Assembly: GCF_964204645.1 (NCBI RefSeq)
Contig: NC_134033.1
Location: 8,874,655 to 8,938,654 of the forward strand
Length of the DNA: 64,000 nt
Source of the DNA: Tubulanus polymorphus
Lineage: Eukaryota > Animalia > Nemertea
Direction of reading: 5' to 3'
How positions within the stretch are numbered: the stretch's first letter is position 1; every line of letters begins with the position of its first letter. Below, piece by piece: positions 16,901 to 49,900 of the stretch. The notes below the pieces were generated by a model that worked only from the letters and a program-made list of their open reading frames with translations, had not been told where the DNA came from and ran no database searches. Made by a program: the position numbers and the translations under genes.

Positions 16901-19900
16901 ACTAGTATCGTGACGCTAGATTGGCTATAAATTTACTTCGGTGTGTTAAGCATCGTATCTGCTGGCCACGCTGGCATTAGTCCGCTACTGCGCGAATCTA
17001 CGGTGGTGAATAAATTGATGGCAGCACCGATTGAATCTAAAAGTTCTGGATTTAATAGAATCAGTAGTGGCAATCCAGAAAACCCGTTATCGCTTCTGTG
17101 CAGCTATATTTTTCCGGTGAAATCTTGTAATTACCTTAAGGGACAACTAAACGACGAGGCAGCTCGAACTATCGAAGGCTTACGCTTTCTAATACTCATT
17201 GCGACTCAGCTGCAGATATACTGAGAAGGACTAAGGTCACCCGCACAAGATAATATCTGAATATCTGCGAAAATTATGGGAGCTGGAAAACCATAAATGA
17301 TCTAACAAGTATCAAACATTTCTACAATACGATCAAGACATGTGTTCGTTGACTGAAGAGAATGGACAAAACAGAACTCATGAAGACTTCATTGTACCTC
17401 TACTATTCGACAAACTACCAACAGAAATACCTAGACACTTGGTCGCTAATTGTACTCGAATCTCGATCCGATCGAATTTCAAACCTAATGCAACTCCTTG
17501 TTGCCAAACGCGAGTTCATTCGCTTTATATCCGCCCTATTGACCTACCTCGGTTAATCGAACATTAGTATAGTGGGGAAGTGATGTCGCTGGCATCCTTG
17601 CGTGACATAATGACTTATACAAGGCCTACTAGGCCTAATGTAATTTCTAATTTCTTTGCAGATCTGCAGTCTTTAACATTCTCATTATCATAGCACTGAC
17701 GGCTGCATTAGCTGGCCAGGTAATCATTACTTTTTCTTATATACATATAAAATTTACCCTCAATATCTCTCCATCCAAATCGATATTCATGATAGGCCTA
17801 TATTATTGTGATATATACTATTGTTACCTGTCTTTTATTGTTTTATTTAGCCAGCTTTATTAAAGGGGAACTGCAGCGAAAAATGTTTTGTATCTATATG
17901 TGTTAGAAACCTTTATAAATACATTTTCAAAACAGCAGAAAAACATTTCATCTAATACTTTATCCAAAAAGAGGGTTTTGTAGATTCCCTGGCCGCCGCC
18001 ATTTTCTCCACGTAGCAGACGCTTTTCTCTTGGCCGTGACGTAGGCCTAGTTCGGCCCACTTCGGTACGTGTTACTGCTATTCATAGTGTTTTCGTCACT
18101 TAAAGTCCAATAACAGTTCTATACTGCAGCATAATGCCACATCAGCAATTTTTTGGATATGTTTCAATCTTCAACTGAGATCTTCAATGAGTGTATCTTT
18201 TTGTGTACACACTGGAGTGTGTGATGGGCCCGGATACGTCATCAATGTTTACATGTCTCACTTTGGAACTTAAATATGGTGGCTCTCATCCGCCGTAAAT
18301 TCTGCTGATAACAGAATTAAAATCGTTGTATACAAGTTAATTATGAAGAATTGGGAATTCAAATAGCATTATGCTAAACAACAACAAGAGTAGAAATGAA
18401 TGGCCAATTATAATTATTTGACTGCAGTTCCCCTTTAATTGTGTAAAGCCATACCTCGACTTAACGCCACCCTTGAAGATTCCTGATCTTGTCTCATTAC
18501 GTACGGAAAAAAATGGCCAAATTTTAAATCGAGGTATGACTGTATATAGATTTTCTAATCGTTGCTATTCTATTGTGGCTCCACAAAGCAGATAACGATT
18601 TGGTAGGGGAGATATTGAGGTTTTCTCCAAGGACGATTCGGAATATTTCATTGTAGCAGGCTGTATATAAGACGGGGTCTACTTGATTTATCGCAATTTT
18701 TATTTCCTGATCCCGTTCACACCCTCACAGCAATCAACGTTTTCTCTTCATAGGTGCTGCTATTGGATTGGCGACCTATGACACGGGATGCAGTGTTCTA
18801 TGGCTTATCGATTGCGTGTTTCATAGGATTTTCCTGGGATAACAAATTCGAATGGTATGAATCAACAATTCTATTGGTTCTGTATGCTTTATATATCGTT
18901 ATCATGGTAATTAATCGAAGAGTGATGGAATGGATGAACAAATGGAAAAACTGGTAAGATAGTTATTGACATTCCGGCTTTGAGTCCATTTTGCTAACGC
19001 GTTTCTTGCTTCACTGCTTGTTAACACGTCATTTTGGTAACATATACGTTTCTGAACTTAATTACGAGGTAACCTCGTAATTAAGTTCAGAAACGTAAAT
19101 GAAGTTACAAATCTTGGCTTCTTTCATTCATGTTAAAATATGAGGCCTAGAAATGTATTTTGGGCACCGAATATTAGGCTTGCACTCATTCATGTGCGTA
19201 GGCAGCTACCGTCTTCGGTTTTGCACACCGGTTCATCGACGTTTTCCCACTTCAAAAAGTTATGAACAAGATAAAATTAGTAGGCTAATTGTCATCCGAT
19301 TTTATCAACTAAACTTTAAAAGAAAAATGAAAAGGATCTTTTATAGTGTTTAGAAATTCAGTGTCAGTAATTGGGGAATAGTTGTTCTAGATCAAAGGTC
19401 GAGAGGTTGAGCTCATAAAAATAATGTTCTAATTGAATCTATATGAAATATTATTTAAATAGATTCAATTAGAAAAACAATACAATTGAATAAGCTAGTG
19501 TTGTTAAAGTAACTTAATGTTTTTTTAATGTTTTTTTATTCAATTCTTATTAATACTAAATTTCTTTACCTTCGACTAAAATGATATTAGAAAAACTTTA
19601 CCTTGAATAACTTAGGATCATCTTGTATTATGTTAGTCAAATGTAAAGAATGAAAATATTTATCTGATAGATTCATAGAATTACTATAAAAATAAGATAT
19701 ATATTTGAATATAATTTGTACCTTTCCCAGTGTTGAAATATAAAAAATATTAGCTGAAAATATAAAATATGATAAATCTGTGAAGACACGGGGGTTTATT
19801 TGAATATAAGACCCCCTGTGTCTAGAATCCAAGAAAGTAAGAAAGTAAGACAGGTACGAGACGTACGAGTAAGAATCCAAGAATTCTTACTTTCTTACTC

Positions 19901-46900: not shown

Positions 46901-49900
46901 ATAGATTATATTATAACTATTTCTATATTTAGATTAATTTATTTATATTTATAATTTTTATTAAAAACTTATTTATATAATTATGTACTAGACGTACGAG
47001 TAAGAAAGTCAGATTCTTGCCAAGAAAGTAAGATTTCTTGGATTCTTACTCGTACCTGTCTTACTTAGTTTTATAAAAATGAATAAATTATATGTTTTCA
47101 CTTAATAAAAATAAAAAATAGATTATATTTTAACTATTTCTATACTTAGATTGATAATTTATTCATTTTTATATAATCTAAACTAATTTATATATATAGG
47201 TACTAGACGTACGAGTAAGAAAGTAAGAAAGTAAGATTTCTTGGATTCTTGGATTCTTACTTGTACGTCTAGTACATAAATATCATTAATACTTTTGTCA
47301 TATATATTTCTGTTTCAATATTTATTTATCTCACAGATTTATTATAAATATTTGGAAAAGTATAAATCATATTCAATTATATATTTACATTTATCATTAA
47401 TAAAAGAGGATTACAATGAAACCATTAGATTGTTAAATTGTTTAAGTATTAAATTGCGTAGATTGTATATTCATAAACTAAATGATAAATCACGAATAAG
47501 ACTGTTAAATTAGCTGAAATGTATGAAATATTGTATGAAATATTAGTTAATCAAAAAAGGGGGTTGAGGTATCAATGTATTAAATACGTATTCAATACGT
47601 ATCAAAAAGATTTAAATAAAAAAACAAAAAAATAAAAAATACTCGCTACTTTTTCTCACACATTTTATGTTTGCACTTTACTCACACTTTTTATGTTTAA
47701 AATTGATTTTTTATTATTCGAAATCTATATTTGATCTTATTTATCTAGATTATTATGCTAACACTTTATTCACACTTTTTAAATATGAATATCTTAAGAG
47801 TAATAGGGATAATAGGGGTTCAGGTTAAAGGTTGAGGGGTGAGTGAGTAAAAAATGAAAAATAAATTCGAGCGTGCGAGAATTTATTTTTCATTTTTTAT
47901 GAGCTCGACCCTTCGACCTTTGGCCTGAACCCCTATTATCCCTATTACTAGTGCGCTGTCAAATCGCCTTGATATTTTGCAGTCACCTGGTGTATAGATG
48001 GACCAGTGTCACCACAAGTTGGGCAGTCCCTATGTTTCCTCTGTCTCTTAGGGATGCGAGACAGGGCGTCTGCATTCAAATGTTTGCTTCCCGCTCGATG
48101 TTCGATCACGAAAGCATATTCCTACAGGCGTTCAAGCCACCGAGCCACTTGGCCCTCGGGGTTTTTGAAGGTTTGTAGCCCCTTGAGTGCTGCGTGGTCT
48201 GTGCGAACTTTGAATTCCTGTCTAGTAAATGGTGGCAGAAGTGATCAATCATGTCAACCAAGGCCAACATTTCGCGTCTGATGGCACAATAGTTCTCCTC
48301 TCCACCTTCGATCACTCTCTCAGAACCATCCCGTTGTAGCTGTGACAGCATCCCTCCGATGGCCCAGTTAGAGGCGTCACAGTCCAAAATGAACTCTCCA
48401 GCGCTCACCGAGAAATCTGGGCATGCCAGGATAGGGGAGCTGGTCAGCTTTTCTTTCAGTCCGTCAAACTCTAGTTGTTGCTTGGATGTCCAGACGAATG
48501 GTTCATTTTTCCTCGTAAGACGGTGTAGCGGGGCTGTCAAGTCGGCGAAATCCTTGATGAATTGCGAGTAATATGTCACAAGACCAAGGAAACTACGCAG
48601 TTCGGTAACTGACGTTGGGGTCGGCCAATCCCTGACTCTATCGCATTTGGAACCGTCGGTTTCGACACCGGCCTCGCTTACTACATGCCCCAATAACTTG
48701 AGGCACCGCTGGACAAGCGAGCATTTCCTCGGTTTAAGCTTGAGACCGGCTTTCTGGAAGCAACGAAATACCTCTTGTAATCGCGTCAGATGGGTTGGTA
48801 GATCATGACAAAACACCACTACATCATCCAGGTAGATAAGGCATGTTTTCCATGCAACATCATCCAGTACCATCGCCATCAGTGTGCTGAATGACGCCAG
48901 GGCATTACAGACTCCAAACGGCATGCTATTCCACTCAAATAGATGGTTTTCAGTCGTGAATGCTGTCTTATGTTTGTCTGATTCCTGTATCGGGACCTGC
49001 CAGTATCCGCTGGTCAAATCGAGGGACGAGAACCAGGTTGCGCCCGATAAAGCCTCTAGGGTGCTGTCTATTCTACCTAACGGGTGTGCGTCTTTGAATG
49101 TCGCGTCATTGAGTCGGCGGTAATCGCAGCATAGACGCAGGAACCATCGGCCTTTTTCGCTAGAACTATTGGGCTTGACCACGGGCTGGTGGATGGCCGG
49201 ATCAAGTCGTGTTCTAAAAGCTCCTTGGTCGTCCCCTCAACAAAAGCTCTCCTACCAGGGGGTTGCCGACGAGGATGTTGTTTTATCGGTGGGTGGTCAC
49301 CGGTGTCAATCTCGAATTCAAGCGAATCTGTTCGACCGATGTCAAAGTCTCCCATCGAGAATACTGACTTGTGCTCCCGTATGATGTCAACAAGCTGTGT
49401 TTTCATGTCAGTGGGGATTTCAAGCTGGTCGATTTTCAATTCTTTCAAGTGGTCCATGAATTCAGTATTGTCACCACCCTGCAGCTGGATTTTTGGAGTT
49501 GACGGGTTTTGAGCATAGTCGTCAACAGTCATGATGTCAACTGACTGTAGGGGGCAGAATCGACCAATAGTCTGGCCCCTGTCGACTCTAAAAGCCTCAT
49601 CCGAGAAGTTAGCTAGCCGACCCGGTATCTGGTTTGCCTCCGGTACCACCAGCGTTTTCCCAGTGCAAAAATTATTCCGTCCACAGCTGCTGATCATCCC
49701 TGAGGTTGAATTATTATGAGCATAACTCCGTTTCATGTATCCATTTACCTCGGATCCAGCTGGAATGATTTGGCTCTTACCGATGAACACCCTGCAAGCA
49801 GTCGCGCGTTTGGGGCTCTGGCGGACAGGCACCTCGCTGAGGCTTCCGAAGCGGAGCACTTTGTTACGGTAATCTATGTTGCAGCCATATTTCTCGAAGA

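Follow-up and report, generated by a model that had tools for sequence, protein, structure and literature searches.

Four related, AT-rich segments (A–D) sit in the introns of a single gene in a 64,000-nucleotide (nt) stretch of the genome of the nemertean Tubulanus polymorphus (assembly GCF_964204645.1, contig NC_134033.1, positions 8,874,655 to 8,938,654; hereafter the window), which raises the question of what kind of mobile element they are and where the enzymes that spread them come from. We read them as non-autonomous mini-Mavericks whose polymerase and integrase would be supplied in trans by a full-length Maverick/Polinton helper, with a probability of roughly 0.7. This assignment is supported by the end motif, the terminal inverted repeats (TIRs), one 6-bp target-site duplication (TSD), some 390 ends in sequencing reads, and the lack of any enzyme gene in the four copies.

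Ends, repeats and copy number

Segments A–D (Table 1) lie between exons of a Na/Ca-exchanger (SLC24-type) gene on the + strand and have GC contents of 27, 23, 25 and 27%, respectively, against ~32–40% in most flanking 1-kb bins. Blocks shared between copies are 83–91% identical; A, B and C face the same way, and D is inverted. With nested insertions counted in, the segments measure 1.8–3.9 kb. Minus foreign insertions, A and D come to ~2.5–2.7 kb and have a common layout of hairpin, gene 1, gene 3, gene 4, two internal palindromes and end. In B, a zinc-finger gene and gene 2 stand in the place of gene 1, which is the only gene kept in C. Homology between A and D over the distal 400 bp was marginal (12 of 300 shuffles reached the alignment score) and was not used.

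Five of the eight segment ends are precise (A left, 19366; B right, 26266; C left, 27846; C right, 30685; D right, 47949). Their termini read AGTA(A/G)T…A(C/T)TACT, with AG..CT at all five, AGTAAT at four and an exact (AGT)2 at one (B, AGTAGT). As for the other three, D left lacks its first 18 nt, A right stops at the tip of its hairpin, and B left is cut inside a gene. The TIRs span 228 bp in C, with 2 mismatches, and ~306 bp in D, at 92%; the outer-arm match in A is 56 bp long. C, the one element with two precise ends, is flanked on both sides by AGTAGT, a 6-bp TSD with a chance of ~3e-4 for one element. An empty site for D is joined 44059–47950 in a contig of run X1, with no host base lost.

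With respect to the sequence beside the ends, the 6-mers adjoining four of the precise ends (19360–19365, 27840–27845, 47950–47955 and 26267–26272) start with AGT on the + strand in three cases (AGTGTC, AGTAGT and AGTGCG; chance ~0.02 per site), the 6-mer next to B being GACATG. These letters perhaps reflect a target preference for sequence resembling the element's own end; a strong genome-wide AGT bias beside ends was not seen in the read tables.

The ends resemble those of Mavericks as described in the available passages of PMC8097293, where (AGT)2 is the commonest end motif, (AG)3 also occurs and the ends are AG..CT (section 7). In the same passages vertebrate Maverick TIRs run from 46 to 1447 bp, a range that takes in both C and D, and accessory genes lie just inside them. 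Taken over the passages considered, Mavericks/Polintons and A–D have in common AGT-type ends, TIRs, a 6-bp TSD (here in one case) and intronless genes that point inward. They differ in that Mavericks are 12.7–24.6 kb long and carry core genes, whereas A–D are 2–3 kb long, carry none that was recognised, and end mostly in AGTAAT. No frame in A–D exceeds 179 amino acids (aa), none has a Pfam match for pPolB or rve integrase, and the elements leave no space for a major capsid, ATPase or protease gene. Set beside the 12–25 kb and the pPolB and rve genes of autonomous Mavericks, A–D fall outside that group on length and core genes; they work like non-autonomous Mavericks.

Copy numbers were estimated from 12% of one whole-genome shotgun run with the same species label, mapped on two stretches and without an assembly, relative to a depth of 6.5x at three single-copy bins and at a likeness of at least 85% for all counts. 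The outer arm is present in ~390 copies, inner arms in ~117, the zinc-finger region of B in ~100, gene 1 in ~60, genes 3 and 4 in ~16–20, and the palindrome and distal regions in 6–7. At 47949/47950, 1845 reads run off the D end into unlike flanks. Together, the depth and the unlike flanks indicate that this end is real and dispersed and that most members have interiors without a counterpart in the window; some of these unseen copies could be longer or autonomous. Joints in reads and contigs revealed hairpin length variants and A-type/B-type mosaics. From the read depth, the genome would be close to 300 Mb in size, and spliced genes along with gypsy-like and other repeats indicate an animal.

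The original prediction had described four related AT-rich segments in the introns of one gene, TIRs of 225–300 bp in C and D, a 6-bp TSD in C, and no visible pPolB, integrase, ATPase or capsid gene; these points were borne out, in the case of the capsid for the major protein. Its claim of shared termini holds for the five precise ends, not for D left, A right and B left, which are truncated or cut. Its description of A–D as whole elements stands in so far as the segments are related, and needs correction in that parts of A and D are nested transposons and a 24-bp array makes up about half of C.

Terminal hairpins and a possible mode of replication

The intact gene-proximal ends fold back into hairpins of 122, 342 and 151 nt, with z from −18 to −31 relative to 60 dimer-block shuffles per hairpin. 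Specifically, the folding energies are −51 kcal/mol for B right (122 nt), −150 kcal/mol for C right (342 nt) and −59 kcal/mol for D right (151 nt), the last against −11 ± 3 kcal/mol for its shuffles. On the right side of A, 129 reads from other copies run from 22485 into an outer arm. The fold-back hairpins, 120–340 nt long and inside the TIR, set A–D apart from the Mavericks of PMC8097293, the available text of which never mentions a hairpin.

Within the first 26 nt, subfamily differences occur on both arms of the hairpin, which indicates that the arms are kept matched. The outer arms are nevertheless all of one type (6/6) and the inner arms all of another (5/5). At positions 27, 28 and 35, outer arms mostly have C where inner arms have T; this is so at position 35 in 6/6 outer and 5/5 inner arms, with one exception each at positions 27 and 28. 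Read on the strand that closes the hairpin with its 3′ end, these differences form G–T pairs, and the three hairpins together contain 14 G–T, 2 A–C and 6 other mismatches.

In terms of mechanism, a helper's protein-primed polymerase would first start at the terminal AGT-type repeat, a type of repeat that the available passages of PMC8097293 link to protein-primed replication. The helper's retroviral-type integrase would join the outer ends to host DNA and leave 6-bp duplications. Next, a displaced single strand may form a fold-back at its 3′ hairpin; this would preserve the match between the arms, and template switching at this step would yield TIRs and hairpins of varying length, like those of A (56 bp), C (228 bp) and D (~306 bp). 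Finally, the fixed C-to-T changes would spoil the inner arm as a copy of the end while still allowing G–T pairing, leaving the outer end alone in use.

A different reading starts from the hairpins themselves, and we regard it as unlikely, although it fares best among the alternatives. A–D could be satellites or remnants of parvovirus-like rolling-hairpin replicons, in which synthesis starts from the 3′ hairpin as primer, the product is resolved by a nicking protein, and integration is incidental or borrowed. Parvovirus termini are imperfect hairpins of similar size with a fixed arm asymmetry. The hairpins of 122–342 nt at the very ends, the lean of the mismatches to G–T and the internal palindromes all agree with such a replicon, and low-confidence models of genes 1 and 2 predict a beta-alpha-beta-beta-alpha-beta order, which is the order of HUH domains. 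Parvovirus-type elements differ from A–D, however, in several respects. No flipped hairpin (flip/flop) was found among 6 outer and 5 inner arms, a small and non-independent sample, and no NS1/Rep or capsid gene was recognised in A–D. An HUH/SF3 Rep had no support from Pfam or from a CRESS profile, the models being of low confidence; genes 1 and 2 scored 12.8 against 100 CRESS Rep nuclease domains (124 loci), with 8 of 40 shuffles higher. The precise integration, with AG..CT ends and a 6-bp duplication, fits an integrase.

Orphan genes with signs of past selection

The genes of A–D are intronless, tightly packed and pointed inward from the hairpin, and their start context is mostly of AAAATG type. 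Pairwise comparisons between copies gave synonymous divergence (dS) of 0.19–0.73 and nonsynonymous divergence (dN) of 0.04–0.19. The dN/dS ratio was 0.12–0.58, below 1 in 11/11 pairs and with Fisher p<0.05 in 10/11, which indicates that these genes were protein-coding and selected in their source lineages. Most open reading frames in the A–D copies are broken by stops or frameshifts. These ratios support the small intronless same-strand frames noted in the original prediction as real genes, mostly no longer intact here.

Genes 1 and 2 are 28% identical over 88 aa (3 of 2000 shuffles reach the score) and, as judged from this comparison, are distant relatives with a common tail carrying GIQC/AVQC motifs. 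These motifs may be similar to those bound by dynein light chain. C2H2-like fingers that score under the Pfam cut-off are encoded by gene 4 and by the additional gene of B, and genes 3 and 4 each have a hydrophobic segment on sequence inspection. In B, a 50-bp motif (85% alike) is found at 25622–25671 and 25953–26002, upstream of two different genes, and is a candidate common promoter. A possible decayed gene 4 paralogue with a similar 3′ end occupies 47276–47637 in D (8 of 300 shuffles reach the DNA score).

Nested inverted repeats that are modular and differ in length, the array in C, hundreds of ends and varied interiors would also suit foldback or cut-and-paste elements moved by an ordinary DDE transposase and carrying captured genes. 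We rate this origin slightly lower than rolling-hairpin replication. AG..CT ends with a 6-bp TSD fit no DDE superfamily in the available passages of PMC10045372, where IS3EU/GingerRoot, the other superfamily with 6-bp TSDs, has TA..TA or TG..CA ends, unlike the ends here. Moreover, intronless packed genes with AAAATG-type starts under purifying selection are unlike captured host fragments.

The large protein searches covered genes 1 and 2, and not genes 3 and 4 or the zinc-finger gene. A four-sequence profile of genes 1 and 2 found no relative among 1.84 billion protein representatives, and a 5.8-billion word search, made at near lengths only, found none for either gene. There was no usable Atlas match and no protein relative in IMG/VR or PDB sequences; PHROGs gave no relative (best E 0.07), and Rfam gave no match. 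The end sequences had 0 matches in IMG/VR, and an 18-mer of the end had 100 matches in metagenomes, which we took as chance, 0/100 reaching into the hairpin.

Structure models of genes 1 and 2, with pLDDT of 57 and 42 and the strand order given above, were used for fold searches; Foldseek returned nothing at E<=0.001, and the highest Z scores were 5.8 and 4.7. Penton and HUH structures were not among the fold-search matches of these weak models, which does not amount to exclusion. With both models, Y-family little-finger domains came up repeatedly among the highest-ranked matches, with scores that the tool classes as a common arrangement. A penton identity for genes 1 and 2, suggested by eye from PMC4028283 supplement 3, found no support: the score was 13.6, with 8 of 40 shuffles higher, against a profile of 75/120 proteins of Polinton-like virus (PLV) type in which pentons were assigned by motif and A32 ATPase neighbourhood and not Pfam-confirmed.

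Transpovirons, according to the available part of PMC5499653, are ~7-kb linear molecules with TIRs and without capsid genes that carry an SF1 helicase-polymerase and are thought to derive from PLVs by gene loss. A–D are likewise small TIR-bounded parasites in which no capsid gene was recognised, and an origin as linear plasmids of transpoviron type, reliant on a large DNA virus of the host animal and integrating only occasionally, would suit small, linear, AT-rich units with zinc-finger and small membrane genes, but it is the least likely of the alternatives, given that no frame in A–D is long enough for an SF1 helicase-polymerase, that IMG/VR holds no relative, and that A–D are chromosomal, with hundreds of integrase-type ends bearing a Maverick-type motif.

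Origin of the family and other features of the window

Several points weigh against the mini-Maverick interpretation. In terms of the ends, the TSD evidence comes from one element and the duplicated sequence is identical to the end motif; the D junction can be explained by a duplication plus loss of 23 nt, or by loss of 17 nt where nothing was duplicated; four of the five precise ends, being AGTAAT, are an imperfect repeat; and one-ended joining would likewise give damage such as that at 3/8 ends. The copy numbers derive from 12% of one run and not from an assembly. The 11 dN/dS pairs are short and non-independent, and that for gene 1 between C and D (0.58) is not significant. The G–T excess of 14 over 2 A–C falls to 9 over 2 when three inherited positions are counted once. 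Pfam and the protein searches link no gene of A–D to any Maverick gene, and a helper Maverick was not seen within the 64-kb window, no assembly having been searched.

Two accounts of how such mini-Mavericks arose are equally tentative, each falling short of an even chance, and the data do not separate them. In one, A–D belong to a self-propagating satellite lineage. As true satellites, which we hold possible to the same degree, they would be 2.5-kb lineages that hijack the polymerase, the integrase and perhaps the capsid of Mavericks and whose own genes are selected. Consistent with this, A and D keep the whole compact layout despite a dS of 0.24–0.73. In the other, they arose by serial deletion from full Mavericks and retain a single accessory region. 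Here the fall in depth inward from the hairpin and the loss of genes 3 and 4 from C are in agreement, as is the location of accessory genes next to the TIRs, on their inner side, in the Mavericks of the PMC8097293 passages. The original prediction of non-autonomous derivatives or satellites of an unseen endogenous DNA virus stands as regards non-autonomy and Maverick-type ends, with satellite and deletion product about equally probable.

Defective Mavericks in hundreds of copies are described in the available passages of PMC8097293, and polintons that lack polB and stay mobile in those of 10.1101/2025.02.07.637071; P-N1A_NV and P-N1B_NV, listed in the part of PMC4028283 supplement 3 considered, are read as non-autonomous from their names only. 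Like A–D, the defective Mavericks in these passages lack a polymerase and are amplified to many copies; they either retain the majority of the core genes or represent full-length elements in decay, whereas A–D have no recognised core gene and carry orphan genes with signs of selection. The combination had been called unrecognised. This holds for the 2–3 kb hairpin-ended form with selected orphan genes, of which we found no description in a search that left most subscription journals, Repbase and Dfam outside, and not for defective or polB-less mobile Mavericks, which are known.

If the satellite account is true, such satellites would rely on an asymmetric fold-back end for replication, their genes may manipulate the helper or the host, and animals would have their own equivalent of phage satellites and transpovirons. 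If the genes are selected inside mini-elements, animal Mavericks have gene-bearing parasites; if selection acts in full-length parents, the mini-elements are abundant deletion products. Maverick replication and integration have been deduced from gene content and not shown directly. A family stripped to its ends would mark the cis sequences that the helper needs, and the fixed difference between inner and outer arms would offer a natural test of end recognition.

Table 1. Positions of segments A–D, their parts and the exons around them, numbered within the window
Feature	Position	Strand	Remarks
Host gene exons	16.5, 17.7, 23.7, 36.2, 56.7, 58.7, 60.0, 62.1 kb	+	Pfam Na_Ca_ex E 5e-17 (first exon); 23.7, 36.2 and 56.7 kb read by eye
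Element A	19366..22486	-	Precise end 19366; other end lost beyond hairpin tip
Palindromes in A, two	19854..20138		19854-19913 and 20051-20138; z -8 and -11; also in D
A gene 4	20266..20567	-	Hydrophobic segment and C2H2-like tail; frameshift near 20390
A gene 3	20620..20840	-	Small protein, one hydrophobic segment; frameshift near 20724; left limit approximate
A gene 1	20989..21529	-	Orphan alpha/beta domain and GIQC/AVQC tail; frameshift near 21160
A inner hairpin arm and tip	21727..22486		Split by nested insertion
Nested unrelated element in A, 668 bp	21751..22420		~560 copies; joint 21750-22419 in reads, depth
Element B	24511..26266	-	Precise AGTAGT end 26266; other end cut inside gene 4
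B gene 4	24511..24731	-	Truncated
B gene 3	24779..24997	-	Open, 72 aa
B gene 2	25150..25622	-	Distant gene 1 relative; 121-aa open frame; tail lies in a different frame
B zinc-finger gene, 97 aa	25659..25952	-	zf-met E 0.014, below Pfam cut-off; region ~100 copies
B terminal hairpin, 122 nt	26145..26266		Folding
Target duplication, left copy AGTAGT	27840..27845	+	Flanks C
Element C	27846..30685	-	Both ends precise; 228-bp TIR
24-bp tandem array in C	28074..29530		~58 units, recurring 17-bp units; ~1460 bp, about half of C
C gene 1	29573..30193	-	169-aa open frame; stop 29686-29684; zinc-finger-like tail past stop, read through with X
C terminal hairpin, 342 nt	30344..30685		Folding
Target duplication, right copy AGTAGT	30686..30691	+	Flanks C
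Element D	44060..47949	+	Within Ty3/gypsy-like element; left end without 18 nt
D left hairpin	44060..44190		Outer arm truncated; folding, alignment
D gene 1	44493..44980	+	Frameshifted
D gene 3	45110..45290	+	Frameshift near start; interrupted by nested insertion
Nested unrelated element in D, ~1190 bp	45290..46482		~410 copies; seen in read depth, in loose ends on either edge and in a form lacking it
D gene 4	46560..46865	+	C2H2-like tail (zf-C2H2_4 E 0.0013, under the Pfam cut-off); a single stop within the frame
Internal palindromes in D, two	46980..47290		Folding, alignment with A
D right terminal hairpin, 151 nt	47799..47949		Folding; 1845 reads exit at 47949/47950 to unlike flanks

Forms without the nested insertion were found in reads or contigs for both the A and the D site. 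The A insertion has no TIR and a GC-rich hairpin near one end, and is Helitron-like by anatomy only, its ends not being canonical. The D insertion, with subterminal inverted repeats, a short stem-loop and a T-rich site, looks Helentron/HINE-like, an anatomy that the available passages of PMC4067079 give for Helentron-derived elements. The 24-bp unit of the array in C resembles a GACTGTT-AAAT motif that follows gene 4 in A and D, and the array reads as an 8-residue repeat interrupted by the recurring 17-bp units.

D is inserted in a decayed Ty3/gypsy-like element (48000–51700, ~45 copies) with reverse transcriptase-, protease- and gag-like frames on the - strand, as read by eye. Elsewhere in the window, a large inverted repeat at 11060–11849 (arms of 216 and 161 bp, 94%) is a separate foldback element or resembles a miniature inverted-repeat transposable element, and one at 39963–41480 (252-bp arms, 83%, enclosing 1 kb) is possibly a non-autonomous TIR element. 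Thousands of reads exit on both sides of a 36-bp stretch at 17076–17111, a very high-copy short motif. A decayed endonuclease frame of non-long-terminal-repeat type (Pfam Exo_endo_phos E 2e-4) and a frame resembling GIY-YIG by eye are found at 2309–3437 and 6386–6793. Outside the window, IMG/VR contigs L101–L108 form one uncharacterised PLV-/virophage-like family with an A32 ATPase and with genes for putative major and minor capsid proteins that match nothing in Pfam; L104 also has a D5-like primase-helicase.

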